42,890 bases of DNA from Psammoneis japonica (lineage: Eukaryota): assembly GCA_008632985.1 (NCBI GenBank), contig QPGO01000134.1:186001-228890 (forward strand). The letters run 5' to 3'. How positions within the stretch are numbered: the first letter of the stretch is position 1; each line of letters opens with the position of its first letter. The notes under the pieces were generated by a model, which was not told where the DNA came from, searched no databases, and worked only from the letters and a program-made list of their open reading frames with translations. The position numbers were made by a program, and so were the translations under genes. This document shows positions 22,665-42,890 of this stretch, one piece after another.

Positions 22665-22990
22665 TTGCATGTTCTTTTAAAAAATCGTCAGCCGTGCCAT
22701 CTGGCGCTTGCATGCGACAATTGCAGGGGCCAAAACAAGAACAGAATGGTCACAAGGTCGATTCTGTGGCTTGTTGAGACAAAAAGATTCAAGAAAGTGC
22801 CTCTTGTGTGCCTTGCAGCTGGTCACTTGAAGAACCCTTGTGACGGGATGTTCAATCTGCTGATAAAGGACCACACAAACCTCAATCTTTTCACAGATGA
22901 TGGCCTCATTGGCACTTTGAATGGACACAAGGAGACCCTGGGAAGTTGTTTCAGTGGACGAAAAAAAGTCTGTTGAAACAGACTGTGGGT
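22665..22990 (+). mobile_element. DDE transposase fragment, Sola-like
   Basis: LALACDNCRGQNKN...LWLV...VCLAAGHLKNPCDGMF matches the DNCxGQNKN...xLxxGHTxNxxDxxF pattern. Confidence 0.7.
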
Positions 22991-24259
22991 TGGAACAGCA
23001 AGAAGGCACGTTGAAACTGACACCTTGTTGGTGCCGCTGTCACTCATTGCCCTGTGCACACACACTCATGTCAGTCAAACAGTGATTGAAAAACAATGCT
23101 GGGTGATGATGAAGCAGGCAGAGCAGCAAATGCATGGGAGAACAAACCATGTTCACATTGTGGCAAGATGAGGAGGGCTGCCTCCTTGTCATTGGGGTTG
23201 AAAAACAAAGGGAGAGAGGGGGCTCCATCTTGCCATCACCTCTCTGTCATTCAAACTGTGCAGAATTGGTTGATTTGGAAGACCACTCTTGGCATCTGTC
23301 AAGTGGACCCCTTTGCCATTTCAAACAACTGGAGATTGTTGGGTTAGATTGACACTTGTCAACGTGTCTTGCTTCCAGCAAACTTGGAATGAGACTGCAT
23401 TGTGCAAATTCCATGGCTCCAATGTTTTGTGATGCTTGTTTCCAAAACTCCAAGCACTGGTTGACTGCTTGTCAATGGACTCTCAACTGACCATGGGCTG
23501 AATGCTGCAGACCACAGCCAAGGCACAAGGCTTGGCATCATTTCTTTGTTGAGCTCCATGGAAGTCACAACTGGTTGCACTTTGTCAATCATGTGATCAG
23601 AGCTGGTTTTGTGCGAAGCAGCATCGGCACTGCAGCATTGTTGGGCACATTTTCACAGCCATGGATTCAACCCACTTCTTCAACCAGGTCGATTTCTTGA
23701 GTCAAATCTTTCTGCCAAGTCAGCGGCATGCAGGTGATTGACTTGTTGTCTTGCAACTCAATTGTCAGCCCCTGCTCCTCTGGAGTTTTTGGAATGACAG
23801 TGGTGGGGATCTCAATTCCAAGGATCTGTTCCAGCTTGCTTGGTTGCTGCAGTGCCATTGGATCATGTTTTCAGGTTTCTGTCCTGCGTCAACAATGCCA
23901 CCCAACAACTCACCACCCCCAGTCTCAAGGATGATTTCACATCATCGCCAACTTGCCTGTTTCATTTGAGTCAAGTCACAACATTTCATTTGAAGCAAAA
24001 AGAGCCAGGACTGTGCAGATTTAGACTGTGAGCAGTCTTTTCCATGGACAGCTGGTTGAAGTGTGTGGCCACTTTGACTGGAATGTCTGTTGTTGAATCA
24101 GAAATCTCAGAGCTGGTGCTGCCCATTGCACCGCCAACAGCAACTGCATCTTTGGCATCTGCAATGATGCACATTTCCAGCTTCAAGGCATGGCTTTTGT
24201 GAACAATCACTTCTGTTGTTTTGCCCTTTTTGGGTTCACAAACAATGATTTTGCCATCT

Positions 24260-24649
24260 GACGCGTTCCAGGTCTAGGTGGGACCTCGTACTACTGAACT
24301 GTGACATCGATAGTTTTTTGAATCACGTCGTATGTCGCGCACGTAGATTTCTACGTGATTTTTTTGACATTTTGTGTCATTTTACGGTACACTTACTGAG
24401 CGATCCGTCCAACAACTTTTGACATTTTTTGTTACAGCGCGATTCTATAATGTCTTAAGAATCGCGTAGGGCAGGTGCATTTGCAAAAACGTCGAGTGGT
24501 AAGAGGCATAATTGTACCACAAACTTGGCCGTTTATTTGATGTTGAAGATAAATATATCCATTAATTAAATTCTCGTAGTACGGAGCTCGCACGTAGAAT
24601 TCTACGGGCCCAATGTCACACGGAGTCCCACCTAGGGCTGGAACGCGTC
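24260..24649. mobile_element. MITE (390 bp), young copy with TSD ATCT
   Basis: TIR GACGCGTTCCAG..CTAGGTGGGAC at both ends. ATCT at 24256-24259 and 24650-24653. Non-coding, AT-rich interior. Confidence 0.93.
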
Positions 24650-26633
24650 ATCTTTCACTTTGACAAAATCAAAGGCGTGAAGCGGTTGTCTGCATTTGAG
24701 CATCACGCAGTTGGTTGCATCAACATCATTGTTGATGGAAGCAATTCCTGCAGCTGCCAAGCAACCCACCAGTCATGACAGACTGCTCACAATTTTTGCA
24801 CCTTGAGTCAATTGGGTTGTGCATTGACGCTGCTTTAAAAATGCAAACTTGCCTTTCCAGCCTTGAGAGCTCCTCAAGAAGCTCTTTGCCATTTGCCGTG
24901 TCAGTCAATGGGGCACAATGTGTGGTGCATTGCATTTCCCCTCCAACCCAATCAGATGAAACAGAGGGAAGAGCACAAGCAAAGAACGGAGCAACAACAC
25001 AAGTTAAACAGAGCAAAGCATGCAGTGGCAAACAACAAATGAGTTGCTCACACCCAAAACTCATGAGGTGCAACTCTGCACATTTCAACAGCAATCCACA
25101 AAGAGAAAAATGATGCCACAAGAGCTGGCATGTGACATGTTTGAGAGTCTCCTCTTGACCACAGCAATGACGCCACTTCAGGTTTGACAGATTGCAGTCA
25201 ACGCAAACAAGGCCAATGTTTTGGGTGGGCAGCAGGCAGCCACAAGGCTGAAAAAGGATGCAGCAGGCACTGCGTGAAAAAGCAAGAATGACATTTGTTT
25301 TTCCAAAGCCTCCCTTCCCATCCTTGGCCACTTTCCTTGGCTGTTGTTGCATCCTTCCATCTCCACCAGCCATGACACACAAGCGCTCAAAATGTGGGGC
25401 AGCCAGGACTCACAAATTGACAAAGCACTTTCTCCTTTTCTGGAGCATGCCAGAGCAGAAGACCAGTGCAAGTGATTCTGCTGCCTGGGTGACTGCAAGA
25501 GACTGCCCAACATGGTGTGCAAAAGAGGCAGCAAAAATCCTGGGCTGCTCCCCATGCATGGTCTGCAGCTGACAAAGGACCCAGCTTTTCTTTTCAGGCT
25601 TTGTCCTGGCTGTTTTCCTCTCATGCACAACTCCAACAATGGACAGCCACGTTGCTGCAGTCGGCCAATGTGGCTCAATTGGTGTTGCCTTGTTTGGCTG
25701 TGTTTTTGCACGACCACAAATTTGTTCCTCATTGTGGCTGTGGCAAACAAAAAATTGCCCAGACAAATCATTTGGTTCCCCTTCACCATGTGCAGGCAGA
25801 AATGGCACTTTCACCTCTGATGTCCAAAACATTTCTCCAGGCTCACGTGTTCTCACCTGGTGCAAACCACTCTACAAGATCCTTCAACTTTGAATCTCTG
25901 TCAAGCTTTTCATCTCAAGTCTGGCCACAGCCACTTGCATTGCTGCCATTGCTGGCCAGCATTTCCCTCCAGTGCTTTTGCAGAATTGAGCCTGGCTCTG
26001 AGTCGAGACACTGCACTGTTGAAGAAACAATTTGAGTTGTGCACTGGAACACTTGGATTTGTTTTGACCAGCCCCACTCTCAAAGTGCCCTGAAGTCTTG
26101 ACACATCATTTGTTGCTCCTGTCTGGCTTCTGCCAAACTGATCAGACATTGTGCTTTTGCCATGATCAAGGAATCATTGGCGCACTCACCCTCTTGAACA
26201 TTCAGCTGGTGTCTCTTGTTGCATTTTTGCAGCCAATGTGTCAACAGATCATTGGGGCCCATCTTGAGAAGACTGTTGTCTTCAAATGCATGGACATCTT
26301 CCTTGGCAACAAGGTCATGGACGGCTGCGCTGCAGCCAAGCAAAGAGTGCTGATGGCACCCCAGATGCCCAGTCTGGAGTGAAGGCATCACACCAGCGGG
26401 GTTCACAAAGTTGTCAGCAGGGCAGAGTGGATCCTCAACTTGAAGACATCAAAAACATTGGTGGGCACAGCAGCGCTGAGAGCACAACAGGCCCTGCAGG
26501 CCATGGAAATCTTGCCATGACTCTCATCAGCAAAACACAAGGGTCAGCTGATCAAAAATGCATGGGGCCTGGGTGGGTGGGCCAGAGCCATCATTTCATT
26601 GTCAATCTCCTGGCACACCAACTTGTGGCGGTG

Positions 26634-27071
26634 TGCAACACACAGCCACTGACAAGAGCCAATGCATCACGGCGACGTGTTGCAGCCTTTAAATGTCACA
26701 AAGGGCGTGACAAAATAACCTTTTGTCTGCATGCATGCTGCGTTGTGAATCCATGGCGGAGTGGTTCATCGTGTGACCATTAGGCAGGAGGCCAGGGGTT
26801 CGAAACCCTGAGTGGGAGTTGTCTGCAGCAACGTTGATCACTGTCGAACGCGTAAAACTCTGTGCAGTTCTGCATGTTCCTTCGCACGTGCCCACACTGT
26901 TCCGCCAAAACCGTGCAGTGTCAGCACACGTGAGCGTAGGTCGCGTGACACATGGGGAGGAGTGCAACACACAGCTGCTGATGAGAGCCAATGCATCACG
27001 GCGACGTGTTACAGCCTTTAAATGTCACAAAGGGCGTGACAAAATAACCTTTTGTCTGCATGCATGCTGCA
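26634..27071 (+). mobile_element. TRIM-like mini LTR retroelement (438 bp) with TSD GGTG
   Basis: 109-bp direct repeats at 26634-26742 and 26963-27071 (TG...CA). PPT GGGGAGGAG at 26954-26962. GGTG at 26630-26633 and 27072-27075. Interrupts a region that is continuous in copies A and B. Confidence 0.88.
26754..26807 (+). promoter_or_regulatory. tRNA-type Pol III internal promoter (A and B boxes) inside the TRIM
   Basis: A box TGGCGGAGTGG at 26754-26764; B box GGTTCGAAACC at 26797-26807 within the stem CAGGG...CCCTG. Confidence 0.7.
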
Positions 27072-30000
27072 GGTGCTTGAGAAATTTTGCCAACAACACC
27101 TCATCTTTGACAAAAATGACATGTGGCTCACACCAACAAGGCCAGTGCCACAAGAAATGCAACTTTTGAGTTCATCAACAGCACAGACCCTGTCCCTGCT
27201 TTCCTGCCTGCCCCTTGTTCTGGTGCGCAGGTGGTGGAAAAGATTTGAGCTGCACCCTTTGCGCTCCCAAATGTGAGAAAGCCAAGTGTGCCTCCAAACA
27301 CATGCTCTTGTCCCGCGACAGAATCAAGTGTCTCTCATTTGCTCAACACGCCATTGTGGCCAGGCCTCCATGAGCCAGCTGGACAAACAAACAGCTTGAC
27401 ATTGTTTTGCTGGCATTTTGCTGTCCTCACAATGGGCTGCAAGTTGGATGAGATGCACCCGGAGCTGCCACTCATGGTTGTGTGGTGGTTGTTTGCAACT
27501 TGATGTTCAAACATTGCAGACTCTTGTGTGCTCAACAAGCCATGACAGAGCTGCGCGCCTGTCTTGACCAACTGGAGTGGCGCCTGTCTCTTGAAATCTT
27601 GGGGTGAAGTTGGCTGTCAGCTGCCATGGCATTGATGAATGGATCCACAGAATTGTGGACAAGCTCCTTCTCAACCTTGTTGTTGGCAAGATCAAGAGAC
27701 ACAAGAGAACCCAAAACTGCTCCACTGCAATCTCAGACAAATCAACCTGACACTTTTGGCAATTGACAAAATCAGTGCTTGTGCCAACAGCCTGCACTTG
27801 CTCCAGTTCCAAGTCCACCGCAGCACATGTCACACCCCATGGAGTGCCGTCTTTTGCGCCAGAGATGCAAGATGTCTTCAATGACACCCGCATGGATCTT
27901 CAAAATCCAAGGAATCTTTCAAGATTTTGAGCACCTTTTCAGCACACAGCTCAGCAATCTTCCGTGCCATTGGGCTGCAACCAATCTTCGTGACAAACAG
28001 CCAGCTGCACTTCCCCCCTTCTGACTGGTGGGCGTGTCATCAGCAAAGGACTCTTGCCCAGTTCCAGAAGCTCTTTTTCTTCCTTGGTGCAAAGTGGCTG
28101 TTTGCCATGAGCTCATTGTGGTTGTTGCCCTTGGTTGATGCCAAGGCTGAAACATTGGCAGCAGGTGATTTTTTTTTGGTCAGTGTTGGTGGCTGAAGCA
28201 CCAGCAGTGGGCAAGTGGGTGTCAGCAGCTGCAGTGTTGGCAGCAGGTGAGTGGCGGGTGTCAGTCAAAAATTGAAAGGGGGTGTCAACAGCTCCAGCAG
28301 GTGGTGGTGATTGGAAGAAAGCAACAATTGACAGTGTGGGTTGCTTGGTCAATTTAGCCACCTTGTCATTCTTGAGGGTCAGTGTGCCAGCCACCACATT
28401 CAGTTTTGGCAGCTCAGTGGTTGGTGCCTTGGTGGTTGTCCTCTTGAAGTTGCTTGTGACAATGGCTGCTGCATTTGGCCTTGGAAGAGGGGATGAAAAG
28501 CATGGCCAGCAGCTTTTTATGGAGAGCAGCATTTGATGATGCAAAAGATTTTGCAGGCAAGCCCTGCTCAGCTCCTGTCTTGGCAAATGACTGGAAAAGC
28601 ATTGGCAACAAAAGAACAGTGCAGTGTGAACATGACAATGTGATTGAATGCTTGCCATGTCACAAATGACAGTGGTTGGTGTGCAAGAGCCAATGCCAAG
28701 CAAAGAGCTGTGCACCTCATGCTCATCTCTTGTCTCACTTGTGAAACAAACAAACAAACAAACAAACAACAGCAGAAATTCAGGGAAGATCTTGCATCAA
28801 TTCATTGCTCATCCAGAGAAAAAGCTGCGGCGGGTGTGACAAGAGGAGTCACTTGATGCCCAATGCACCTCATGTGCTGTTGGAGTTGACTGTTGTGTTC
28901 AAACAATTGGCGTGACAACAAGCCACATGCAAGAAGTGAGAGTCATGCTCAAAGCAGAAACAACACAAGCAGCAAAAAAACAAAGTGACTTGCTGCAACT
29001 CTTGCCAGTTTGGTGGATCTTTTTCCAGTCATCAACCCTGCCTGCTCAGTCACGGATGGTCTGGCAACATCACACTCATCTCATCACTCACAACCCACAA
29101 CATGGTGTCACCTTGTTGTTTGCATTGTGGTGGCAGAATGCACTGCAAAGCTCAAACAAACAAAGCAAGTGCAAAAATCAGCAACATCAGTGCATGAGCT
29201 GGACAGTGTTTGCCCCTCACAAGCAGGAGAAGCTCATGTTCCAGGGCATGAAGGACCCTGCTGCAGAGGTGTGCATTGAGGCAGTGCAACTTGAGGTGCT
29301 TTTGAAATGCCTGTGACTCACTGACACCTCGTCATCACCACAAAACATTGACCTGATGATGACAGCCCCAGATTGACAAGGCACAAGTTGCTCCAGGTCT
29401 CCTCTGCAGATCAGAAAGGCAACAAGAAAAGAGGACACTGCCTTGATGGAAAAACAGTCAAGTGCAGACAGTGTTTCAGCCAGAGCCGCATTCTTGGAGG
29501 ACAGACTTGGACCACCATCATTGGCTGTCTGCAAAAGAAAGACAGGTGCACTTGTCAGATGCACAAAATTTGTTCGTTGTCCTCGTGATTCATTTTGCAC
29601 ATTGCGCACTTGCCGCGCTCAAAAAACAAATGGTTTGACAGCAATGAAATGTCAGTCAAAGCAAGAAGCAGTGCATCTCAAAAAAAAAACAATTTGAAGT
29701 GCTGCTGCACCTTCACCCAGCAATGCTGGTGCCAGCTGACCCACACCTCCGGTGCACCCTGCAAGGAGTGCGGCAGAAGCGGGCTTGATTGGCCTGAATC
29801 GGCATCTCCCCTGAGGAGATGCCCGGCGGGAACAGCTGGTGCAGAGAGTGCAACAACACTTGGAGTTTGCTGTGGCATTGCTGGCAACATGCACACTGGT
29901 CATGCCATTGCCACAGAGGACAGTTGCAGCTGGGAAAAATTCACACGGGAGCCACAAAGGGAGCCAAAAGGAAGTCAAAGGAAGAGTGCCAAACCACTGG

Positions 30001-31169
30001 CTGTTGCTCATCAAGCAGTGAAACCTCACTCAAACCTCAAAGAAATGAAGCAATGGAAAGATTGCTGCATGCAGCAGAAAGCTTGATTTGCTGGCAAGCA
30101 AGGGGGAGTTTGTCCAGGGCTGGGTGACAAGAAATGGGAGTGCTTGATGATTCGACCAGTCCGTCATTGGGAAAAATGTTTTTCACGTGCAGAAACCATG
30201 CCTGATCTTGCGCAGAAATGCCGACACACACAGCAAATGGATGGCAGTCACTTGTTGCCAAAGGGAGGCTCATGCTCACACTCGTCAGCATCACAACAGA
30301 AGAAGCAATTTCGCCACAAGCAGTGAAGGACTTGGCTGGCCGATGGGAGCAAAGAAAGTCATTGGAGACAGAAGAGTGACGTGTTCCAGCCGCACGTGAC
30401 CCAAATCATGCACAAAAACAACATTTGCGCAATTTTTGCACGGTCTCTGACTTGCAAACGGTTTCTCACCACCAAAAGAATGGATTTGTTCAAATTTGAA
30501 TGTTTTGCAACACTGACAAGACTCGTGTGAGTGTTGCAACATCATTGTCATTGTGCTGTCTGTGTTTTTCATTGCGACAAACAAATCGCAACACAACAGA
30601 TGATTTTCAGCAAAATCATTGCCGTCATTTGGATGTCACCCAAACACATCTTTCTACGATGAGGCTTGGTGGGTTTTCTACCTGCAAAAAAGCTCAGCAC
30701 ACAATGCACTGACGCATGATCAGCGTTGAGTCTACAGAGAAAGTTCATGACACATGTCCCATGAGGACTTAACACCCCACAAAAAACTGTTCAAATGTTC
30801 ATGCTCTGGACTCCTGTAAAAGCCAATCCACTCAAGCATTTTGTGTGAAAATGCTCAACGCACTAAAAGATGCACAATTTACATTCAAAATCGATTGTCG
30901 TTTTGTGTGTCACCTGGGACTGGAACACATCAAGTGTGGGCACAAGAAGCTTAGAAACTTGACAAAACATTCATTGGTGGGGTTTGACGAAGCGCAAAGA
31001 ATTTGTGCTGAAATCCGTGCAGACAATTTCTTGGCTCTGCAGAAAATGACAAAAAGAATCAACACGCACATGACCCATGAGGAGTTGACGCCAATGCATG
31101 CACTCAATGTCAAAAAAAAAAGCACAAAAGTCCAAACGAATGTCATCCCACATTGTTGCTCCACACCCG

Positions 31170-34100
31170 TGGTCCATTTGTTGCTGAGCTGACAAAGGAT
31201 CCAGCCTTTCTTTTCAGGCTTTGCAATGACATTCTTCACCTCATGTGCTGCTCCGACAATGGACACGCCATTGCAGTCAGCCCACGTTGCTTGGTTGGTG
31301 TTGCCTCATCTGACTGTTTTTTTGCGCGCCCATGAATGGGTTCCTTGGTGTGGCCATGGCAAATGAAAACATTGCCCGGAAACACGATGCTGGGGCTGCT
31401 TGTCAGCAAATCATTTGGCTCCCCTTTGGCAGGTGCAGGTGGAAATGGCACTTTCACCTCTCAGGTCCAAAACATTCCTCCAGGCTTGCCATCCTCACCT
31501 GGCACAAATCGCTCTGCAAGATCCTTCAACTTTGTGTCTCTGTCAATCTTTTTGTCTGCAGTCTGGCCACTGCCATTTACATTGCCACAATTTTTGGCCA
31601 TTTCCTTCCAGTGTTTTTAGCAGAATTGCACCCAGCTCTGAGTTGCAGAAAACGTGGTGCTGAAGAAACAATTTGAGTCACAAGCTTGAACACTTGGAAT
31701 TGTCTTGACCAACCCTGCTCTCAAGAAGTGCAACCAGACACAGTGCCTTTGCCATGATCAAGGCATCATTCGTGCGCTTGCCCGCTTGAACTTCTGGCGG
31801 GTGTCTCTGGTTGCATTTTTGCATCCGACACGTCAACGGGTTGTTTGGGTCCATCTTGGGGAGATTGTTGTCCTTCAATGCGCAGATGTTTTCCTTGGTG
31901 ACATGGTCACGGAAGACTGCGCTGCAAGTGCAAGGGTGCTGATGGCATCCCAGATGCCCAGTCTGGAATGAAAGCATTGAGTTGATCGGGTTCACAAAGT
32001 CACTGGCAGGGCAGAGCTGATCCTTGTCTTGAAGACGTCAAAAAACATTGGTGAGCACAGCGGCACTGAGAGCACAACGGGCCCTGCAGGCCATGGGAAT
32101 CTTGCTGCGACTGTCGCCAGCAAAACACAAGGGTCAGTTGATCAAGAATGCGCAGGGCCTGGATGGATGGACCAGAGCCATCATTTCATTCTCAACCTCC
32201 CGGCACACCAATTTGTGGCCACGTTTGATGAACTTTGCCAACAACACCTTATCCTTGACACAAACAATGTGGTTTGCATCAACAACGCTGATGCCACAAA
32301 CATGGCTTTCGACCTTGTCAACAGCCAAATCCATTTCTACGTCCCCACCTGCCCGCTGTTCTGGTGAACAGGCGGCAGAAAAGATTTGATTCACACCCTT
32401 TGCATTCTCAAATGCAGGAAAGCCAAGTGTGTCACTGAACACATGCTCTTGTCCCATGACACAATTGGTTGTCTCAAGTTTGCTTGACACGCCATTGTGG
32501 CCAGGCTTCCACAAACCAATTGCATGAACAAACACCTTGGCATTGTTGGATTTGGCAAACCTTGCAAGAGGTTGTAAATCAGAAAAGATGCGTTCGGAGC
32601 TGCCACTCGCCATTGTGTGACAGTTGTTTGCAACTTGATGACCAAACATCACAAACTCTTGTGTGCTTGACAAGCCGCAGCAGAGCTGAACGCCTGTCTA
32701 GACCAACTGGAGCCTCTTGAAACCAAGGACGTCACCTCCACGATCGCGAATCTGCTGATGAAACAAATGTTGAAAAGGATGAAGAAGACTGTCTGTTGCC
32801 ATGGCCTTGATGAATGGATTCACCGCATTGCGGACAAGCTCCTTCTCAACCTCATCATCAATGAGATCAAGAGAAACAAGAACCCGAAACTGTTCCTCTG
32901 CAATCTCGGATGAATCAACCCAACACTTTCGGCGATTGACAAAATTGGTGCTCACACCAACACTCTTCACTTGCTCCAGTTCCAAATCCATTGTGGCATG
33001 CGTCCCACCCCATGCAGTGACTTTTTTGCAGACGCAAGACATTTTGAATGACATCCGTGTGGATCTTCAAACTCCCAGGCATTCTTCAAGATTTTGAATG
33101 CCTTTTCAGCATGAGGCTTGGCAATCTTCCGTGCCGTTGGGTTGCCACCAATCTTCATGACAAACAACCAATTGTGCTTCTCCTTCTGACTGTCAGACAT
33201 GTCGTCAGCAAAGGGCTCTTGTCCCTGCAGCTTCTTCTCCAGTTCCAAAAGCTCTTTTTCTTCCTTGGTGTAAAATGGCTGTTTGCCATCATGATCGTCA
33301 TCCTTGGTTGAGGTGAGCAAGTCGGCATCGGCAGCAACTAAAGAGTCAGCAACAGGCGAGTCGGCATTGGTGGCTGCAATGTTGGCAGCACCGGCAGGCG
33401 AGTCGGTGTCGGTGGCTGCGACGTTGGCACTGGGCATGTGTGCATCAACAGCTCTGGCAGGCGGCGGTGATTGGAAGAAAGAAGCAATGGGCAGTGTGGT
33501 TTGCTTGGTCAATTTGGCCACCTTGGAGCGCTTGACGGTTGGTGTTTCTGCAGCTTTTTGCTTCACTGGGAGCGCAATGGCAGGAGTCCTGATGGCAGTC
33601 CTGAACTTGCTTGTGACGCCAGCTGCTGCATTGGCAACGGGACTAAAAAAGGCACCAACAGTCCTTTGTCTTTTGTCCAGGGGCTTGCGCAGCTTGGGAG
33701 GCATGGTGATGTGACACATTTGGCTGCGGTGCGAATCCTTCTACATCACAAGAGAAAACGACATGACAAACAATGAGAATGACAAATGATTGGAAATGCA
33801 TGAGAGACAAAAGAACAACTCAGTGTGAATGACAACATGATTGAGCACTCACCGTGTCAAATGGCAACGATTGGTGTGTGGCCTCCAATGCCGAGCTGCA
33901 CGAAGAGCTTTGCATCTCGCACTTGTTTCCCGTCACTTGTGAGATGGCAAAACAAACAACAAGCAACAACCAATGTGAGACTCACATGTCAATGGCAGAA
34001 TGAGGAAATGTAACAAGGGAAAGAAGGAACACCACACCAAAAGCAAGTGCAACAACAAGAGCAGAGTGATGTCTCGTTTTGGTTTGTGTTTGATGAGCGA

Positions 34101-35225
34101 AGCGAAACGCGCCGAAAAAAAGCCACTCTGGATTGAACACATGCATTTTCTGGATGTGTCACACGCATCTTTCATCTCTCAGTTGTGAGAGTCAATTGTG
34201 AGTCGGAGGTGCGGAGACACTGTCTCTAGAGCAGAGAGGCGGGCGCACCTCTCTGTGGCACTGACACTGACACTCAATGCTTGCCAGCGAGCACAATCGA
34301 GCATTCATTAATTGCATTGACTGCTGTGGCTCTCCCACTCTCCACTGCAGCACCAGTGGCCAGGCTTTGGGCCCCAATGACAGAGAATCCAAAGCACAGT
34401 GAGACAAGCGTGGCAATCAAGAAATCAAAATGATGCCGAGAGAGAAAGCATCTTTCTTGACGCATTCCAGCCCCAGGTGGGAGCTCGCAGTGCTGACGTG
34501 TGACACAAATGAATTTTGTCATCCGTCGTGTGTTTCGCACGTAGATTTCTGCATGTGACATTTAAAAAAAATTGTCCAGACTCGCTGTTTTGTGAAGCCC
34601 CAGACGTTTTATGTGGCAAGTTCACAGAAACAACAATGTGCCAGTTGCATTCTTCAATGTCTGAAGAATGTAACTGGCCAAGTAAAAAATGATGTGCTTC
34701 AATCACAGGCGAGTTTGTGCGTTCGCAAAATTGCCTCATTTTCTGTTGGTGATCATTGACATTTTAATTGCCGCATGATTTTGCTGTGGAGCTCGCAGGC
34801 AGAAGTCTACGGGCCCAATGTCACACGGATTCCCACCTGCGTCTGGAACGCGTCTCTTGCAGATGGCAATCAACTTGCCAACAATGCAGAGACATCCATG
34901 ATTTGCAGCAGACGGGGACATCACTTGGTGTGAATGCTGTGCGTTCTGGTTGACGAACATGACTGTGCTTCGAATGAAATGAGTGATGGCTTCGTCTTGG
35001 GCCGGCACGCTGCGAGGTGCGTCTGCAGTTTCACATTGTCTCCCCTCCACATGTTGATTTCATCCAATCTGACAATGTTGATAAAAACAGAGTGGGCAGA
35101 GTGTGAGACAAGCAGCTGTTGAAATGACGATGGTGGCAGAAACTCATGAAACACGATGTGTCCAAAAAATCCTGCCTTCCTTGCTTGCTTCCCTTGGTTC
35201 TCTGTGTCCTTCCGCCATCCCCTGA
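31170..35225 (-). mobile_element. Large unclassified repeat, copy B (TpA-depleted)
   Basis: Colinear with 38300-42890 apart from deletions. ORF remnant MPPKLRKPLDKRQRTVGAFF starts at ~33704. Confidence 0.9.
34459..34854. mobile_element. MITE (396 bp), older relative of 24260-24649, with TSD TCTT
   Basis: Termini GACGCATTCCAGCCCCAGGTGGGA and TCCCACCTGCGTCTGGAACGCGTC. TCTT at 34455-34458 and 34855-34858. The empty site with a single TCTT is at 41611-41614. Confidence 0.93.
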
Positions 35226-35274
35226 CCACGTGCGCGTGCAGCACGCACAACGCACGCACAATGGGATGCATGCG

Positions 35275-36800
35275 TGTGGTGTTTCTGCAGCCTTTCGCTT
35301 CACTGGGAGCGCAATGGCAGGAGTCCTGGCAGCAGTCCTGAACTTGCTTGTGACGCCAGCTGCTGCATTGGCATTGGCAAGGGGACTGAAAAAGGCACCA
35401 ATGGTCCTTTGTCCTTCATCCAGGGGCTTGCGCAGCTTGGGAGGCATGGTGATGCGATGTGTTTGGCTGCGGTGCGAATCCGTCGGCATCGCCACAGCAA
35501 ACAACGGATTGTTAGAAATGAATCAGAAACAAACAAGAGTGCAGTGTGAACAATGGTGTGACCATGCACTCACCGTGCCAAATGACAGCAACAGGTGTGC
35601 TGCCACCAATGCCGAGTTGAGTGTAGCGCGCTCGTTGCATTTCAATGCGATCGTTTCCAACACGCTGAATGATGTCGACCCAACAACCAATCAGCACCAA
35701 ACAAAACAGTCAATGAGCAACACATTGTTCCACAAAGAGAAAATCATTGAATGGCAGTGTTGTCGATTCGACACTCACCTGGGGAAAATGTTGTTGGTGT
35801 GACACTGTCACGACGAGTCAATTGACGTTGGACGCACCTCGTGTGCCGATGGAGTCGTCGACTCTTGCGTTCAAACAATCGGCACGACGACAAACCAAAC
35901 ATGACAAGTGAGAATCACATTCAAAGTGTGAACCACACAAGACATTGACATGAATGGAGATGAATGCTTGCCTTTCAAAGAGCAGTCAAAAAACAAAGCC
36001 GCTCGATGCGACAGTTGCCTTCTTTTTGTCGATTCTGAGATTGATGACCGCGGAATTCCGGCGCGCCAATTTCGTGCCAGCATCAATCCCGCCTGATCAG
36101 TCACGGACAGTCTGTCCTCGCACTGCAGGTTTTTTGTCGGCATTCTCATCTTGTCACTCTTGAACTCGTCAAACACAACATGATGTTACATTGTTGTTTG
36201 CGCTGCACAAGATGGCCGAACGCGACAAACAAAGTGTGCAAAAAATCAGCAACGCCCGTGCATTAGCCGGACAGTGTCCAACTCTCTAAAACTCTGCCGC
36301 AGAAGCAGTGCATGAAGAGGCATGTTTTGAGGCAGTGGCCCTGCGTCTTGAGGTGGGTGCTTTTGAAGTTTCTGCAACTTGCTGACACTCGTCACCACAA
36401 AGTGTTGACCCATGACGACAACCCTGGATTGGCAAGGTGCGAGTCGTTTGGCGGCCTTTCTCTGCAGATCCGATGGCACAGAAAGACACAGAAATTAAGA
36501 CACCGCTCTGTCAGTGCCGTTCATCGACATTGTCACACAATGCAGCTTTTCTCATCATTCTTGGAGGACAGACTTGGGCTTGGACCATCATCAACCCGTG
36601 CAGAACTTCAGTCAGAGGGGCGTCATTGGAGGACATTCTTGGACAAGTGTCATTGATTGTCTGCAAAAGAAAGAAAGAGCACTTGTTAGATGCACAAAAT
36701 TTGTTCGTCGTCCTCGTGATTCATCACATGTTGCACAATGCATGCTCACCACATTCACACAAAAAACGGTTCGGCAAATGACAAAATGTCAATCAAAGCA
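35275..36800 (-). mobile_element. Large unclassified repeat, copy D (ORF 5' end plus upstream region)
   Basis: MPPKLRKPLDEGQRTIGAFF at ~35447, truncated after KRKAAETP. The upstream region matches 28600-29700 and 41770-41950. Confidence 0.85.
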
Positions 36801-36915
36801 GGCAGCACGTCTCAAAGCATGTCAGCACGCAAACAACAACATGCACACAAAATACAAACAAAGCAAATGGTGCAAGATGCCCATGACAAACAGCAGGATG
36901 TCCCCACTCCCAGCG

Positions 36916-37554
36916 CAAACTGTGCAGTGGTTCGCCGCATGAAATCACGAATGCGCGCGATTCCTGCCCCAAACCATCAAGTGGTTCGCGGCAAGCAAAA
37001 AACGAACTGACAGACGATGGGCAAAAGTGTAAAAGATGATGAGACATCTGCAACAACATTGCATCAGTCGACACAGCAACGTCTGTTTGACAATGTGTGT
37101 GCTTTGTTTTGGCGGTTTACTGTGTTCTTAAACTTCTCCATGCTGCTGCCGTCTTGTTCATCGTGAGCCTCATTTTTCTGGTTCAGTTTTGCACTCGACC
37201 CTCTGGCGCAAATTGCCACGCATGTTTCTACGCTCGTCCTCCCGAACCACCTCATGGTTCGCCAATTCTACGGGGCTCCCGGCACTTGTCCACGCAGCGA
37301 ACCGCTCAATGGTTTGATGTTTTTTTCTGGTGCTGCCCTGCGGTTTTTTCTGCGGGGTGAGAAAATCACCGCCAATGACCATGACGGTGATTTGACGGCG
37401 ACCGAGCTCCACACACGAGTGGCGGCTGACAACATGATGCATTGACAACAATGGCTTTTTGCCTCTGTTGAAAGGTTGCATCTGTGCAGGCACTCCTTTG
37501 TTGTGTCAGTTGCGAGTTTTATCCTGCGCAAGTTGCGAACCACTGAGTGGTTCG
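36916..37554. repeat. Five dispersed copies of the palindrome CGAACCA-N5-TGGTTCG
   Basis: 36916-36934, 36970-36988, 37243-37261, 37298-37316 and 37536-37554; deviations are transitions only. Confidence 0.85.
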
Positions 37555-38079
37555 ATTTTTTGCCCGAGTGGGGATGTCATGTGGCGTCGTTGCCTCACCG
37601 TTTTTCGAGCGTTTCGTTTGCGATGCATGCCGGCACTTCTGCTGCAAAATGCCAAACAGGAGATAAATCAACATTGCACAGAGAGAGCAGACAGCAGCTC
37701 AAAAAAATCATCACTGCACTTGCAACTTGCAAAGTGTGTCGCATCATGTGGATTCTGCCAAATGTGTGTCGAGTTCAGAATGAAGAACGCAATGAACGAA
37801 ATGAGCGCAATGAATGCAACAATGAATCGTGTCGAGACTCGTCCATGCACATGATGTTCATTTTGTGTTTGATGTGTTGAGGTTGCGTTGGCCAATTGAC
37901 CAAGGGAAAGCAAGGAAGGAAGGAGTTTCTTGGATCGCGCTCGCTCGCTCAAGTGGATTTTGAATCGCCAATGCACGAACCACGCACGTGCGATGGGATC
38001 GTGCGTGCACACAAAAATTTTAAAAGCACAACCGCCAAAAAATGATCGCAGCGAGTGCAATTGAAATTGTTTTTACGTG

Positions 38080-38222
38080 CTGTGCTCTCCAGCTCTCTAG
38101 AGTAGAGAGAACAGCCAGTCCACCAGAGGAATGCTGCTGTCTGCTTTTCTAAATTGTTTCTGCTGTGCTCCAGCTCTAGCAGAGAGAACAGCCAGTCTAG
38201 AGGAATGCTGCTGTCTGCTTTT
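38080..38222. repeat. Imperfect tandem duplication (~70-80 bp) at the truncated end of copy A
   Basis: CTCCAGCTCT...AGAGAGAACAGCCAGTC...AGAGGAATGCTGCTGTCTGCTTTT occurs twice. Confidence 0.8.
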
Positions 38223-40907
38223 CTTCGAGTGCAAGAGACTGCCCAATTTGCCGCAGTCCCAAAGAGCAAAAATCCCACATTGCTCCAAACCCATTGCCCA
38301 TTTGTTGCTGAACTGACAAAGCATCCAGCCTTTCTTTTCAGGCTTTGTCCTGATCGTCTTCCCCTCATGTGTGACTCCCACAACAGACACGTCATTGTGG
38401 TCAGCCGACGTTGCTTGGTTGGTGTTGCCTTGTCGGACTGTGTTCTTCGTACGCCCACGAATGGATTCTTTGGTGTGACCGTGGCAAACGAAAATGTCGC
38501 CGGGAAACACGACACTGGGACAGCTTGTCGGCAAATCATTTGGCTCCCCTTCATCAGGTGCCGGCAGATGTGGGACTTTCACCTCTCGTGTCCAAAACAT
38601 TTCTCCAGCCTTGCCGTCCTCGCCTGGTGCAAACCGTTCCATGAGATCCTTCAACTTTGAATCTCTGTCCAGCTTTTCGTCTTTAGTCTGCCCACTGGCA
38701 TTTACATTGCCACGATTGCCAGCCTCTCCCCTCCAGTGCTTTCGTAGAATTGGAGTGAGCTCCGAGTCAGAGACGACTTGGCATTGAAGTAAGGATTTGA
38801 ATCGAAAACTGGAACACTTGGAATTGTTTCGACCGACCCCGCTCTCAAGAAGCACCCTCAAGTCTTGACACATTTGTTGCTCCTCTCCAGCTTCTGCCAA
38901 ACTTGTGAGAGATCGTGCCTTTGCCATGATCAAGGAATCATTCGTGCGCTTGCCCTCTTGAACTTCTAGCGGGTATCTCTGGTTGCATTTTCGTATCCGA
39001 TGCGTCAACGGATCGTTCGGGTCCATCTTGGGGAGATTGTTGTCCTTCAATGCGCAGATATTTTCCTTGGTGACAAGGTCACGGAAGGCTGCACTGCAAG
39101 TAAAAGGGTGCTGATGGCATCCCAGACGCCCAGTCTGGAATGAAAGCATCGCGTTGATCGGGTTCATAAAGTCGTCGGCAGGGCAGAGCGGATCCTCGTC
39201 TCGAAGACGTCGAAAAACATTGGTGAGCGTAGCGGCACTAAGAGCACGACGGGCCCTGTGGGCCATGGGAATCTTGCTGCGACTGTCACTGGCAAAACAC
39301 AAGGGTCTGTTGATCAAGAATGCACAGGGCCTGGATGGATGGACCAGAACCATCATTTCATTGTCAACCTCCCGGCGCACCAACTTGTAGCCACGTTTGA
39401 TAAACTTCGCCAACAACACCTCATCCTTGACATAAATAATGTGGTTCGTATCAACAATGCCAATACCACAAATATGGCTTTCGACCTCGTCAATAGCCGA
39501 ATCCATTTCTACGTCCCCGCCTGCCCGCTGTTCTGGTGAATAGGCGGTAGAAAAGATTTGATCCGCACCCTTTGCGTTCTCAAATACAGGAAAGCCAAGT
39601 GTGTCACTAAACACGTGCTCTTGTCCAACGACACAATTGGTTGTCTCAAGTTTGCTTGACATGCCATTGTGGCCAGGCTTCCAAGATGCAATTACACGAA
39701 CAAACAGTTTGACATTGTTGGATTTGGTAAACTGCACAACGGGTTGTAAATCGGAAAAGATACGTTCGGAGCTGCCACTCGCCGTTGTGTAATAGTTGTT
39801 TGCAACTTGATGATCAAACATTATAAACTCTTGTGTGCTTGACAAGCCGTAGTAGAGCTGAACGCCTGTCTCGACCAACTGGAGCAGCATCTGCCTCTTG
39901 AAACCAAGGACGTCACCTCCACGATCGCGAATCTGCTGATGAAACAAACGTTGAAAAGGATGAAGTCGACTGTCCGTTGCCATGGCCTTGATGAATGGAT
40001 TCACCGCATTGCGGACAAGCTCCTTCTCAACATCATCATCAATGAGATCAAGAGAAACAAGAACCCGAAACTGTTCCTCTCTAATTTCGGATGAATCAAC
40101 CCAATACTTTCGGCGATTGACGAAATTGGTGCTCATACCAACACTCTTTACTTGCTCCAGTTCCAAATCCATTATAGCATACGTCCCACCCCATACAGTG
40201 ACTTTTTTTACAGACGCAAGACATTTTGAATGATATCCGTGTGGATCTTCAAACTCCCAGGCATTCTTCAAGATATTGAATGCCTTTTCAGCATAAGGCT
40301 TGGCAATCTTCCGTGCCGTTGGGTCGCCACTAATCTTCATGACGAATAGCCGATTGTACTTCTCCTTCTGACTATCGGACATGTCGTCAGTAAAGGGCTC
40401 TTGTCTCTGCAGCTTCTTCTCCAGTTCCAGAAGCTCTTTTTCTTCCTTGGTGTAAAATGGCTGTTTGCCATCATGATCGTCATCCTTGGTTGAGGTGAGC
40501 AAGTCGGCATCGGCAGTAACTGTAGAGTCGGTAGTAGGAGAGTCGGTAGTAGGAGAGTCGGTATTGGTGGCTGCAATGTTGGTAGTACCGGTAGGCGAGT
40601 CGGTGTCGGTGGCTGCGACGTCGGCACTGAGCGTGTGTGTGTCAACAGCTCTAGCGGGGGGTGGCGATTGGAAGAAAGAAGCAATTGGTAGAGTGGAGCT
40701 CTCAGTCAATTTGGCTACCTTGGAGCGCTTGACGGTTGGTGTTTCTGCAGCTTTTCGCTTCACTGGGAGCGTAATGGCAGGAGTCCTGGTAGTAGTCCTG
40801 AACTTGCTTGTGACGCCAGCTGCTGCATTGGCATTGGCAAGGGGACTAAAAAAGGTACCAATAGTCCTTTGTCCTTTATCCAGGGGCTTGCGCAGCTTGG
40901 GAGGCAT
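38097..40907 (-). CDS. 936-aa repeat-encoded protein of unknown family with an N-terminal PIP box; probably 3'-truncated
   Basis: Long uninterrupted ORF with three decayed paralogs in the window. QRTIGTFF motif and a Thr/Asp-rich linker with a 15-bp DSPTT duplication. Homology with copy C ends near 38290. Confidence 0.75.
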   Translation of the reverse strand: MPPKLRKPLDKGQRTIGTFFSPLANANAAAGVTSKFRTTTRTPAITLPVKRKAAETPTVKRSKVAKLTESSTLPIASFFQSPPPARAVDTHTLSADVAATDTDSPTGTTNIAATNTDSPTTDSPTTDSTVTADADLLTSTKDDDHDGKQPFYTKEEKELLELEKKLQRQEPFTDDMSDSQKEKYNRLFVMKISGDPTARKIAKPYAEKAFNILKNAWEFEDPHGYHSKCLASVKKVTVWGGTYAIMDLELEQVKSVGMSTNFVNRRKYWVDSSEIREEQFRVLVSLDLIDDDVEKELVRNAVNPFIKAMATDSRLHPFQRLFHQQIRDRGGDVLGFKRQMLLQLVETGVQLYYGLSSTQEFIMFDHQVANNYYTTASGSSERIFSDLQPVVQFTKSNNVKLFVRVIASWKPGHNGMSSKLETTNCVVGQEHVFSDTLGFPVFENAKGADQIFSTAYSPEQRAGGDVEMDSAIDEVESHICGIGIVDTNHIIYVKDEVLLAKFIKRGYKLVRREVDNEMMVLVHPSRPCAFLINRPLCFASDSRSKIPMAHRARRALSAATLTNVFRRLRDEDPLCPADDFMNPINAMLSFQTGRLGCHQHPFTCSAAFRDLVTKENICALKDNNLPKMDPNDPLTHRIRKCNQRYPLEVQEGKRTNDSLIMAKARSLTSLAEAGEEQQMCQDLRVLLESGVGRNNSKCSSFRFKSLLQCQVVSDSELTPILRKHWRGEAGNRGNVNASGQTKDEKLDRDSKLKDLMERFAPGEDGKAGEMFWTREVKVPHLPAPDEGEPNDLPTSCPSVVFPGDIFVCHGHTKESIRGRTKNTVRQGNTNQATSADHNDVSVVGVTHEGKTIRTKPEKKGWMLCQFSNKWAMGLEQCGIFALWDCGKLGSLLHSKKSRQQHSSRLAVLSARAGAQQKQFRKADSSIPLVDWLFSLL

Positions 40908-42890
40908 GTTGATGCGATATATTTAGCTGCGGTGCGAATCCTTCTACATCACAAGAGAAAACGACATGACAAACAATGAGAACGACGAATGATTAGAAAT
41001 ACATAAGAGACAAAAGAATAATTCAGTATGAATAATAATATGATTGAGCACTCACCGTGTCGAACGGCAGCGATTGGTGTATAGCCTCCAATGCCGAGCT
41101 GCACGAAGAGCTTCGTATCTCGCGCTCGTTTCCCGTCACTTGTGAGATAGCGAAACAAACAACAAGTAACAACCAATGTGAGTATTATATATCAATAGCG
41201 GGATGAGGAAATGTAACGAGGGAAAGAAGGAATACCGTACCAAAAGCAAGTGTAATAACGAGAGTAGAGTGATGATGTCTCGATTTGGTTTGTGTTTGAT
41301 GAGCGAAGCGAAACGCGCCGAAAAAATGCCACTCTGGATTGAACATATACATTCTGGATATATTATGCGTATCTTTCATCTCTCAGTCGTGAGAGTCAAT
41401 CGTGAGTCGGAGGCGCGGAGATAGGTGGGCGCACCTCAGCGAGCATTCATTAATTTTGAAATTGCATTGCTAGCTGTGATTCTCCCTCTCTCTACTACAG
41501 TACTCGTATCGGTAGCTAGGCTTTAGGCCCTAATGATAGAGAATCCAAAGCACAGTGAGACAAGCATAGCGATCGAGAAATCAAAACAATGCCGAGAGAG
41601 AAAGCATCTTTCTTGTAGATGGTAATCAACTTACCAATAATACAGAGTTTTCCATAATTTACAACAAACGGGGAGATTACTTGGTGTGAGTGTCGTGTGT
41701 TCTGGTTAACGAATACGACTGTGCTTCGAATGAAATGAGTGATGGCTTCGTCTTGGGCCGGCACGCCGTGAGGTGCGTCTGCAGTTTCTGTAACTCGCTG
41801 ACACTCGTCACCACAAAGTCTTGACCTATGACGACAACCCTAGATTGGTAAGGTACGAGTCGTTCGGCGGCCATTCTCTGTAGATCCAAATGAACAGCAA
41901 GACACGGAAATTAAGACACCGCTCACCGCTCTGTCAGTGCCGTTCGTCGACATTATGTAGGTAACCATTTTGCACACAATGAGGCACGATGCTCGACGTG
42001 TGGCGTCTCCCCTTCACGTGTTGATTTCATCCAATCTGATAATGTTGATAAAAACAGAATAGACAGAGTGAGAGACAAACAGCAATTGAAATGACGAATG
42101 TTGCCGAGAGTGAAATGGTGCGTTGCTTACCAATAATACAAACACAGCAATCCACAATCCACCGGTAGCTAGCAGATGGAGAGATTGTTCTCTTCAATAC
42201 CGCTCGTTCTCACTAATGACTAGAGACCGGTAACTCTGGCAGAAAAGGATGTCTCTTAGTATCAAGCCACCAAAAGGTATTATTGCCATACCCAAAGTCG
42301 CAACACTGATCTTCAACAAAACCAAAGAGTCTAAATACCAACACACAGCAAAAAGCGTGTGGAGACTCAATGAATACAATAGTCATTTCGTCTTGTCTGT
42401 CAATAAGGGATAGCGTATGTCGTCTCTTGTTGGTATAATCTGAAGAAAAGAAATAAAGAGTATAAGAGAAAACAATACTAGCAAAGAATGGAGCACTGGA
42501 CTGATAGCAGAAGCTCAAAAGAGCACGCATTCAATACTCACCAGATGCGGTGCGATCATTCAAGACGACAATCCATAAAAAGGAAAATGGACGCCATAAG
42601 AATTCGGATGTCACTTCTACTTGTGTCGTTTCAGAATCATCTTGCAAATGATAATATAGCACTTGACCACTTACTGCAGCTCTGCTTCAGAAAATCAGAT
42701 TGATGGAGACAACATATATTATTGTAGTCAGCACAAGTGTGCCGAGCAGCAGGCAACCCTAAGGCTACTGTAAAGGAAGATAGGCGACGCATACCGGTAT
42801 CGCTTGATGATGGTGGCAGAAACTTTTTATGAAACAATCCAAAAATCCTGCCTTCCTTGCTTCCCTTGGTTTTCTGCGTCCTTCCGCCAT
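38290..42890 (-). mobile_element. Large unclassified repeat, copy A (least mutated; runs off the window)
   Basis: Homologous to copies B, C and D, and retains TA and CG at many sites where the others have TG or CA. Confidence 0.85.

Follow-up and report, generated by a model that had tools for sequence, protein, structure and literature searches.

In one stretch of its genome, the diatom Psammoneis japonica carries mobile-element relics from which the dinucleotide TpA has been almost completely lost. With good confidence, this loss is ascribed to a DNA-level, tract-limited TpA mutator of the type found in Bigelowiella natans, acting at saturation on transposon relics. The window analysed here is the whole stretch of 42,890 nt (assembly GCA_008632985.1, contig QPGO01000134.1, positions 186,001 to 228,890 of the forward strand). 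In the proposed mechanism, nested mobile-element relics would have been struck by tract-limited, DNA-level mutation that converts TpA to TpG or CpA, an A:T-to-G:C transition on either strand. Near saturation would have been reached while ordinary sites differ by a few percent only. The mutation would halt at sharp borders beside host genes and seems to extend some 1 kb into one still-coding copy, at its left end; a slower CpG to TpG/CpA decay in the same tracts is probably the deamination of methylated CpG.

The window contains three TA-poor tracts which, like the repeat copies and MITE-like elements described below, are treated as unstranded. The main tract, also rich in TG and CA, occupies positions 24634..38966 (bounds 24633–38967) and contains copies C, B and D of a repeat, the left end of copy A and unrelated sequence. 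TA is absent from 28518–30655, a run of 2137 nt and the longest of its kind in this tract. Tract 1 (18026..20101; bounds 18025–20102) has neither an in-window repeat nor a Pfam match, and parts of the tracts have no other copy within the window. Tract 2 (22679..24274; bounds 22678–24275) holds the remnant of a transposase-like DUF7869 gene on the forward strand (22656–22973; Pfam PF25273, E = 8.3e-11). A Pfam search of 39 stop-to-stop ORFs of the tracts yielded DUF7869 only, plus one weak, chance-level match. The three tracts have 80 TA per 18005 nt, and the median TA spacing in the window is 18 nt; ρ TA is 0.0–0.15 in the tracts versus 0.45–0.8 in the adjoining host genes. The borders are sharp, with 250-nt bins jumping from 0–1 to 10–15 TA, and the host genes at 1–17 kb and 20–22.6 kb have normal TA. 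Nearby genes assign the window to a raphid pennate diatom, an FtsH ORF having 88–90% identity to diatom proteins. CpG is also reduced within the tracts, more slowly than TA; at 35001–38000, the loss of TA is complete in bins while CG is still at 0.76–0.98 of expectation.

About 400 nt long and bounded by terminal inverted repeats, a MITE-like element at 24259..24657 forms an unmutated island with 29 TA and 29 CG per 441 nt, and was probably inserted after its surroundings had been mutated. Since this young insert within a tract is unmutated, the process may be episodic or past. A second, diverged copy of the element lies inside copy B (34458..34861) and is partly TA-depleted (7 TA per 441 nt).

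Four copies of the repeat were located. Copy A extends from 38227 to 42890, the window end (mapped 38227–41954 and beyond), and is unmutated right of ~39250. Copy B (31145..35218) is hypermutated; copy C (25491..28499) is hypermutated and older, and contains a 442-nt insertion; the fourth copy, D (35277..36531), is partial. Identity is 84% between A and B and 69–75% between A and C. The family is multi-copy, with matches in 474 contigs of public sequencing runs. A three-way MAFFT alignment of A, B and C gave 2456 ungapped columns and 2420 dinucleotide columns. TA occurs in 70 of the latter in A, 8 in B and 3 in C, TG in 207, 252 and 277, and CA in 180, 255 and 275, respectively. In a 365-nt segment common to A, B and D, there are 21 TA in A, 2 in B and 1 in D. 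The strings on which the first-pass annotation had based its comparison were found where it placed them: GCATAAGG at 40291 in A, GCATGAGG at 33109 in B and GCACACAG at 27942 in C for one site, and TAGCATAC at 40175 in A, TGGCATGC at 32994 in B and CAGCACAT at 27821 in C for the other.

That annotation had treated copy A as the TA-bearing copy. This holds for its intact right part, but the left end, up to ~38967–39250, is itself TA-poor: from 38250, the TA counts per 250 nt are 1, 3, 4, 5, 8, 8, 7, 10 and 8. Double differences between A and B, in which CA in one faces TG in the other, fall mainly here (16 of 25 in bins 38200–39000). Recombination or an assembly join could account for the border inside A; among the matches listed, no contig without differences spanned 38967. 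The right 2.6 kb of A, to which B has homologous sequence, is unmutated although its family is multi-copy, which speaks against simple repeat induction; a silenced-chromatin state, rather than sequence repetition, would determine the targeting. When other copies are compared with this right part, the context is readable at 40331 and 40391, and both are TpA to CpA changes (among the 40 of 1122 differing places listed).

The change is specific to TpA and acts on both strands. Only 7 of A's 125 TA (5.6%) are kept in B; 66 have become CA and 47 TG, so that 113 of the 118 changed sites are CA or TG. A single one is CG; a second change at a site (1 of 125) is thus nearly absent once the T-A context has gone. 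Of the other dinucleotides, 14 (all but CG) are kept at 69–88% and CG at 49%. The two directions are intermixed in B, with no strand runs (51 runs observed versus 55.9 expected, p = 0.19), and no strand clustering of the direction of TA loss was found among neighbours within 12 nt (27:21 versus 32:29, Fisher p = 0.70). At 1088 sites outside YR dinucleotides there are 32 substitutions in the B lineage and 17 in the A lineage (1.6–2.9% per lineage). Set against these, the TA retention of 5.6% places the loss of TA at roughly 60–100 times the background per dinucleotide, as a lower bound.

The neighbouring bases also matter. C is commoner after a changed A than after a spared A (38:15 in B, p = 0.002; 22:13 in C), and A is rarer (14:26 in B; 3:15 in C); TTAG, TTAA and GTAA are over-represented among the TA that survive. 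At 35 of 51 common sites, B and C are altered in the same direction, which is attributed to flanking-base preference; part of this agreement could be change derived in A. The chemistry would be adenine deamination on DNA, by a putative deaminase that requires a 5′ T and prefers a 3′ C. An unlikely alternative is that the thymine of TpA is modified enzymatically in silenced DNA, for example by a TET/JBP-type enzyme to 5-hydroxymethyl- or 5-formyluracil, and then mispairs with G, giving T to C on either strand. 5-Formyluracil does mispair with G, and dinoflagellates contain 5hmU. TpA is self-complementary, as CpG is, so a symmetric, maintained mark is conceivable; when the changes are read as T to C, a G-T-A context is favoured (28 GTA to GCA versus 8 GTG). 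T to C on one strand is, however, A to G on the other, and the two chemistries leave the same sequence. Adenine deamination is preferred by the authors of the B. natans preprint, in the part of it that was available (Mettrop et al., bioRxiv 10.64898/2026.01.13.699255).

TA is the ancestral state, and copies B, C and D lost it independently. The first-pass annotation had claimed this ancestry from the three copies; it is supported by outgroup proteins, composition, a stop-codon simulation and the opposite directions of change in B, C and D. The annotation had also disfavoured a CG ancestor. TA ancestry stands, but the three-copy parsimony invoked for it is insufficient alone, because a CG ancestor also yields TG/CA splits and 19 columns with CG in A show them. 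It had proposed counting columns of the A/B/C pattern TA/TG/CA against CG/TG/CA; the three-way alignment gave 9 TA/TG/CA and 9 TA/CA/TG columns versus 11 CG/TG/CA and 8 CG/CA/TG columns, from which it follows that A retains ancestral CG as well as ancestral TA. The mirror patterns, with B or C as the TA-bearing copy and a split between the remaining two, occur once in total (CA/TG/TA 1, the rest 0).

The outgroup test used amino-acid-changing single-base differences at which A has TA and B (or C) has CA or TG; these were scored by protein homologues from other sources, aligned with phmmer. The homologues preferred the residue of A at 22 sites and that of B at 5 (n = 27, sign test p = 0.0015), and that of A at 10 sites versus that of C at 4 (n = 14). 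At CG sites, the preference for A was 17:2 versus B and 28:1 versus C. For Tyr243, whose codon lies within the second of the string sets quoted above, 50 of 56 homologue rows have Y, whereas B has His and C has Cys. At Tyr456, Y stands in 64 of 93 rows, and B and C both have Cys. The B-favoured sites of the TA class are amino acids 225, 394, 405, 441 and 479. Because the exceptions (5 of 27 favouring B and 4 of 14 favouring C) are mostly V/A, I/V or T/A exchanges, the A lineage may have undergone a few CA to TA changes.

The opposite polarity would resemble the repeat-induced point mutation (RIP) of ascomycete fungi: the family would have been TA-free, and copy A would have gained TA by C to T change at CpA/TpG. 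This is very unlikely. Single-site parsimony does read as A-derived the 36 columns of the three-way alignment in which A has TA and B and C have identical CA or TG, and the homologues side with B at the five sites listed above. The other 22 favour A, among them Tyr243 and Tyr456, taken as invariant. When a random, RIP-like gain of the 79 TA in A's ORF was simulated, a mean of 7.4 stop codons arose and 0 of 2000 runs were stop-free; A has none. The TA level in the right part of A equals that of the host genes, whereas a TA-free ‘ancestor’ would need 3–10 TA per 2.4–3.5 kb. Changes at one site are often opposite in B and C (and D), and each such site costs the RIP-like reading two steps. A majority consensus of all copies would mislead on polarity if most other copies, as is probable, are mutated too.

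RIP as such resembles the present case in being a context-specific transition hypermutation: it inactivates repeated mobile DNA, affects both strands and may spill over into flanks. Its direction is the reverse, since RIP turns CpA/TpG into TpA and creates TAA/TAG, whereas in the present tracts TpA and TAA/TAG disappear and the GC content of the site goes up; moreover, repetition alone does not seem to be the trigger here, as the right part of A is spared. The mutated copies have 3–10 TA and an excess of CA/TG. RIP was rejected on the direction TA to CA/TG, shown by TA counts, simulation and homologues.

The ORF of copy A (P0001; 38097..40907, reverse strand) encodes 936 aa and contains 79 TA and no internal stop. 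As had been claimed earlier, the TA-bearing copy is the only one of A, B and C with an intact long ORF: read in the frame of A, B is broken by 6 in-frame stops and 6 frame-shifting indels, and C by 7 stops and numerous indels. A full HMMER search found 164 homologues of P0001 at E ≤ 0.001; a query with residues 150–800 gave no match, though the full search found relatives. Pfam gave no match for P0001 itself. Among 15 relatives, GIY-YIG (PF01541) was found in 4 and T5orf172 (PF10544) in 3, all under the curated cut-offs (best E 0.0074 and 0.0043, respectively). P0001 belongs to an unnamed conserved family that may have a weak GIY-YIG/T5orf172-like motif at the N-terminus. Its AlphaFold model has a mean pLDDT of 71, and Foldseek gave no match to this model at E ≤ 0.001. 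VIA-align of residues ~398–574 gave Z = 8.8 to MoeA/gephyrin E and Z = 6.2–6.6 to family-4 UDG-like folds; these scores are in the tool's common range, and hence no function is claimed for P0001. PHROGs gave no match for any of four proteins, metagenome contigs scanned with a single protein yielded 51 pattern matches but no relative, and an Atlas search gave no usable match.

Changes in the A lineage are distributed over codon positions as 38/30/43, not concentrated at the third, with 21 synonymous versus 41 non-synonymous. The codon data give no sign of strong purifying selection on A; many of the changes scored in A are really parallel losses in B and C, which makes this codon-position test for selection uninformative.

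An artefact, in which modified TpA makes the base-caller write G or C, is hardly credible. Nanopore assemblies do contain systematic miscalls at methylated motifs. B and C, however, also have the indels, stops and ordinary substitutions of old pseudogenes, copies with a similar context can differ at one site, CA standing against TG, and a conversion of ~94% far exceeds usual miscall rates. Contigs from public runs agree letter for letter where shown (records 2, 9 and 11), though they may share sample and technology.

Editing of transcripts from A to I by an ADAR-like activity, followed by reverse transcription, would make B and C edited retro-copies. Fungal A-to-I editing and ADAR prefer a 5′ U, and this counts for the proposal. 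The same preference is cited in the Discussion of the B. natans preprint, in its available part (bioRxiv 10.64898/2026.01.13.699255). ADAR, fungal A-to-I hyperediting and APOBEC are likewise deaminase-driven systems with clustered transitions and a nearest-neighbour preference, used against repeats and viruses. These act on RNA or single-stranded cDNA and leave a one-strand signature per copy, whereas the tracts are contiguous genomic DNA changed on both strands; APOBEC, in addition, changes C to T, not A to G. ADAR-type hyperediting of retro-copies was rejected on this strand signature: each copy has both directions, which are intermixed in B, without strand runs. The TA-poor state is also continuous over 14 kb of unrelated sequences and stops within A, not at element ends, and Pfam found no reverse transcriptase in the 39 ORFs of the tracts. 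Transcript editing is therefore extremely improbable. Equally remote is selection or compositional constraint, in which the elements avoid TA (and CG), for example to escape a nuclease, with no mutation bias: phage genomes do show word avoidance of comparable strength, but the affected copies are dead, the changes destroyed conserved residues and unrelated sequences within one contiguous tract have the same state.

Alongside the loss of TpA, the tracts show a second, slower change, which is limited to them. Of A's 178 CG, 88 are kept in B, 38 have become TG and 38 CA, and the CG count in the 2420 aligned dinucleotide columns falls from 114 in A to 69 in B and 24 in C. These equal shares and this gradation suggest the deamination of 5-methylcytosine known from CpG decay in silenced transposons, with C more decayed than B. 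Such decay leaves the loss of TA unexplained; TA is gone where CG is still near expectation.

The literature searched yielded a single precedent, a 2026 preprint on the chlorarachniophyte B. natans, and no report of TpA loss in diatoms. According to the available part of the preprint, A>G and T>C accounted for 230 of 231 hypermutations in mutation-accumulation lines, and every one of these A>G/T>C changes was at TpA; the DNA hit was that of integrated giant viruses and virophages, in one case single-copy (Mettrop et al., bioRxiv 10.64898/2026.01.13.699255). The same part reports an approximately 1000-fold elevated de novo mutation rate in living lines, a long-term signature of clustered 1-kb windows depleted in TpA and enriched in CpA+TpG, and TpA-poor coding sequences enriched for DDE and reverse-transcriptase domains. 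As far as this source describes it, the two cases share A:T to G:C change at TpA only, giving TpG or CpA by strand, in foreign or mobile tracts, with the rest of the genome normal. The hosts differ, B. natans being a rhizarian and P. japonica a stramenopile. The targets described there are giant-virus and virophage inserts, whereas here they are transposon-like repeats and a MITE-like element; the NCLDV region has ρ 0.45, and the depletion in P. japonica is near-complete (ρ TA 0.0–0.15); new mutations were observed in B. natans, whereas here they are read from diverged copies. Compared with that account, the present tracts add the 3′-C preference, the gradient into an adjacent intact copy and the coupled CpG decay. 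As suggested for B. natans, the process would serve to defend the genome against mobile or foreign DNA.

We tentatively put forward a broader proposal, possible though short of probable: diatoms would have an active, chromatin-domain-targeted ‘reverse RIP’, in which a DNA adenine deaminase or thymine modifier preferring T-A-C clears silenced mobile DNA of all its TpA before neutral divergence exceeds a few percent. Tyr codons and TAA/TAG stops would thereby be lost, the change would reach about 1 kb into adjacent intact elements, and the process would be homologous to that of Bigelowiella.

For diatom genomics, tracts without TAA/TAG stops give long spurious ORFs, and their Tyr-free, Cys/His-rich translations mask transposon homology; majority-consensus reconstruction of affected families is likely to give the mutated letters. 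Such tracts can be sought by scanning for 1-kb windows with ρ TA near 0 and ρ CA+TG near 1.9. The signature points to an enzyme with base-editor-like T-A specificity. Until the 2026 preprint appeared, A:T to G:C change aimed at a dinucleotide of foreign DNA was not known from any eukaryote. With a saturated signature in a second, distant and ecologically dominant lineage, a single observation would become a candidate widespread defence system, and if the diatom process is indeed homologous to that of Bigelowiella, TpA editing would be an old genome defence of the SAR supergroup and not the curiosity of a single alga.

Self-comparison of the window located four copies of one repeat: copy A, which bears the long ORF (38227 to at least 41954, with more matching blocks to 42890), copy B (31145–35218), copy C (25491–28499) and a partial fourth copy, D (35277–36531). 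Identity is 84% between A and B and 69–75% between A and C. A MAFFT alignment of A, B and C contains 2456 ungapped columns, 1705 of them identical, and 2420 dinucleotide columns; in the latter, TA occurs 70, 8 and 3 times in A, B and C, CG 114, 69 and 24 times, TG 207, 252 and 277 times and CA 180, 255 and 275 times. The first-pass annotation had held that A, B and C carry TA, TG and CA at homologous sites. The strings it quoted lie at the coordinates given for them in all three copies, and the counts confirm the observation: the A/B/C pattern TA/TG/CA occupies 9 columns and TA/CA/TG another 9, against a single mirror pattern in total (TA in B or C, the remaining two copies split). In the comparison with CG in A, which that annotation proposed, CG/TG/CA accounts for 11 columns and CG/CA/TG for 8; at sites that read TG or CA in B and C, copy A thus retains CG as well as TA.

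The pairwise A–B alignment (3490 positions, 443 differences) contains 125 TA of A, of which 7 are kept in B (5.6%), 66 are read as CA, 47 as TG and one as CG. The 178 CG of A are kept in 88 cases (49%) and read as CA or TG in 38 each, while 69–88% of the other dinucleotides of A are kept; B has 10 TA in total. That TA→CG is almost never seen means that a change on one strand removes the target on the opposite strand, as predicted for a strict T-A context requirement. A 121-nt direct repeat (26621–26741 and 26950–27070, 92.6% identical) flanks a 442-nt insertion unique to copy C and resembles the termini of a small element that has inserted. Immediately left of the homology of A with B and C is an ~87-nt tandem duplication (38064–38224, 82% identical).

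The polarity of the change, TA being ancestral in the first-pass annotation, cannot be read from three-copy parsimony alone, since CG ancestors give TG/CA splits too; outgroup proteins, stop codons, composition and independent directions together settle it in favour of that annotation. An exhaustive HMMER search with the 936-aa ORF of A (product P0001; 38097–40907, minus strand) gave 164 homologues at E ≤ 0.001, including 21 at E ≤ 1e-30, with a top identity of 36%; judged by these matches, the ORF is a member of a real protein family. In the phmmer alignment (at most 156 homologue rows), amino-acid-changing codons with a one-base A–B difference were scored. Where A has TA and B has CA or TG, homologues favour A at 22 sites and B at 5 (sign test, p = 0.0015); the ratios are 17:2 for CG in A (p = 0.0007) and 20:10 for all other differences (p = 0.10). 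The corresponding A–C ratios are 10:4 (p = 0.18), 28:1 (p = 1e-7) and 65:13 (p = 2e-9). Tyr243, within one of the examples originally quoted, is TAT in A, CAT in B and TGT in C. Of the homologue rows, 50 of 56 have Y at this position, and 64 of 93 have it at Tyr456. The TA sites favouring B's residue (aa 225, 394, 405, 441 and 479) are mostly V/A, I/V or T/A exchanges.

An origin of A's TA by a process of the RIP type, disfavoured by the first-pass annotation, is opposed by the 22:5 ratio and also by the stop codons. The ORF contains 79 TA, distributed among 14 Tyr codons, the terminal TAG, 18 codon positions 2–3 and 46 codon junctions; when 79 TA were placed randomly on CA/TG sites, a mean of 7.4 stops arose and none of 2000 trials was stop-free. 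Such a model would also require an ancestor with 3–10 TA per 2.4–3.5 kb, whereas the right part of A has the TA level of host genes. Fungal RIP creates TpA, and the process in the window is the opposite. B and C have changed in opposite directions at the same site in 18 columns of A/B/C; for B and D, in A/B/D, 8 are opposite and 7 the same. RNA editing of retro-copies is a misfit with the two-strand, contiguous pattern.

The reading of copy A as the one with an intact long ORF holds in that 936 aa are free of internal stops, but the C-terminal third is encoded in mutated DNA, since the left end of A is itself affected. From 38250 onwards, TA per 250 nt runs 1, 3, 4, 5, 8, 8, 7, 10, 8, and 16 of the 25 A–B columns with both letters different (CA vs TG) fall in 38200–39000, indicating that this end lost TA independently after the A–B split. 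ORF length is a weak sign of integrity for this third because the process removes TAA and TAG; residues 874–936 of the P0001 model have low confidence. The border inside copy A may have arisen by spread from the adjoining tract, by recombination or as an assembly join. P0001 had no match in Pfam or PHROGs, and its relatives gave sub-threshold matches to GIY-YIG (4 of 15) and T5orf172 (3 of 15). A central α/β domain (residues ~398–574; window ~39186–39716, minus strand) is confidently modelled. Fold searches yielded nothing decisive: for this domain, Z scores of 8.8 to MoeA/gephyrin E and 6.2–6.6 to family-4 uracil-DNA glycosylase-like folds are too weak to assign a function, and P0001 is treated as a protein of an unclassified mobile element.

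TA loss is a regional state extending beyond copies A, B and C. The window has 1068 TA (median spacing 18 nt), and only 80 lie in the 18005 nt of three tracts, 18025–20102, 22678–24275 and 24633–38967; the longest TA-free gap is 2137 nt (28518–30655). In 1-kb bins, TA in the tracts is 0.00–0.15 of expectation and TG/CA 1.55–1.92; outside them, TA is 0.42–0.81, save for a stretch at 16–17 kb, and CG is mostly near 1. That stretch (16000–17250; TA rho 0.22–0.33) surrounds a 347-aa ORF (16044–17087, plus strand) without a Pfam match, has 31 CG per 250 nt in the bin at 16000, and is only partly depleted; it could be an element hit lightly by the process, or simply a CpG-rich gene start. Within the tracts are the repeat copies, a remnant resembling a transposase (DUF7869, E 8.3e-11) and stretches without an in-window copy. 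Their borders are sharp: in 250-nt bins, TA goes 1, 15, 14, 1 around the island at 24250–24750. This TA- and CG-rich, unmutated island is a ~400-nt MITE-like element (24259–24657; 29 TA) with terminal inverted repeats CTAGGTGGGA... / ...TCCCACCTAG; a 59% identical relative inside copy B (34458–34861) is partly TA-depleted, with 7 TA.

Genes outside the tracts are ordinary (short-chain dehydrogenase, α-L-fucosidase, FtsH, sulfotransferase, ankyrin protein, β-helix protein), and FtsH shares 88–90% identity with proteins from raphid pennate diatoms, Seminavis and Cylindrotheca among them. The β-helix/Ser-Pro-Thr-rich secreted-type gene at 20102–22678 has normal composition between two TA-free tracts, so that the process spares a host gene about 100–400 nt from tract borders. 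With TAA and TAG lost, TGA is the one stop codon left in the tracts, and 18026–20101, 22679–24274 and 24634–38966 are full, on either strand, of overlapping stop-to-stop ORFs 100–250 aa long; the interval 17500–38300 holds 71 ORFs of 100 aa or more. Gene callers could take these for genes.

The background rate was taken from 1088 aligned sites that are part of no YR dinucleotide, with 17 changes in the A lineage, 32 in B and 137 in C plus stem. TA loss per dinucleotide is at least about 60–100 times this background and about 4 times CpG decay. The two are separable, since bins in 35001–38000 have TA at 0.05–0.11 of expectation, yet CG at 0.76–0.98; the accompanying CpG decay is ordinary. For context, each change was scored as A→G and the changed A compared with the spared A of the opposite strand. 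A 3′ C is commoner at the changed A (38:15 in B, p = 0.002; 22:13 in C) and a 3′ A rarer (14:26 and 3:15); surviving TA are mainly in TTAG, TTAA and GTAA. B and C changed the same way at 35 of the 51 sites they share, probably owing to this flanking-base preference; no strand clustering of TA-loss directions was found. The T-A-C preference recalls U33-A34-C35, the context of bacterial TadA on tRNA-Arg.

Contigs from two public runs of one sample, compared with the window at 80% likeness, gave 474 and 57 matching pieces across all identity classes, so the repeat family is multi-copy. Relative to the window, their commonest changes are T>C (222) and A>G (215), followed by G>A (177) and C>T (167); among the 40 places listed of 1122 that differ, 40331 and 40391 lie in the right part of A, both TpA→CpA. 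Tyrosine, 2–4.5% in most of the family, is absent from two homologues of P0001, P0169 (254 aa; Cys 6.3%) and P0234 (204 aa), which, from composition, may be translations of TpA-erased copies in the same or another organism.

In a full-text literature search, no publication reporting loss of TpA from a diatom was found, and there was one precedent for TpA hypermutation, Mettrop et al. (bioRxiv 10.64898/2026.01.13.699255). In that preprint, mutation-accumulation lines of Bigelowiella natans yielded 302 new mutations, 231 of them in an integrated giant-virus region and a virophage region; 230 of the 231 were A>G or T>C, and every such change was on TpA. Rates were ~6e-7 per site per generation, with hypermutation in some lines only. 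The preprint also describes 124 genomic clusters of TpA-poor, CpA+TpG-rich windows, with DDE and reverse-transcriptase domains enriched in TpA-poor coding sequences, and its authors propose an ADAT2-like DNA adenine deaminase. For the window, we infer an enzyme and a targeting signal of a putative TpA mutator, which may be active at the present day. The signature is the same as that described for B. natans, but here the host is a diatom, the targets are transposon relics and the loss has reached saturation. The window is best filed as targeted TpA hypermutation of this very recently described kind and, within the literature searched, as its first case in a diatom.
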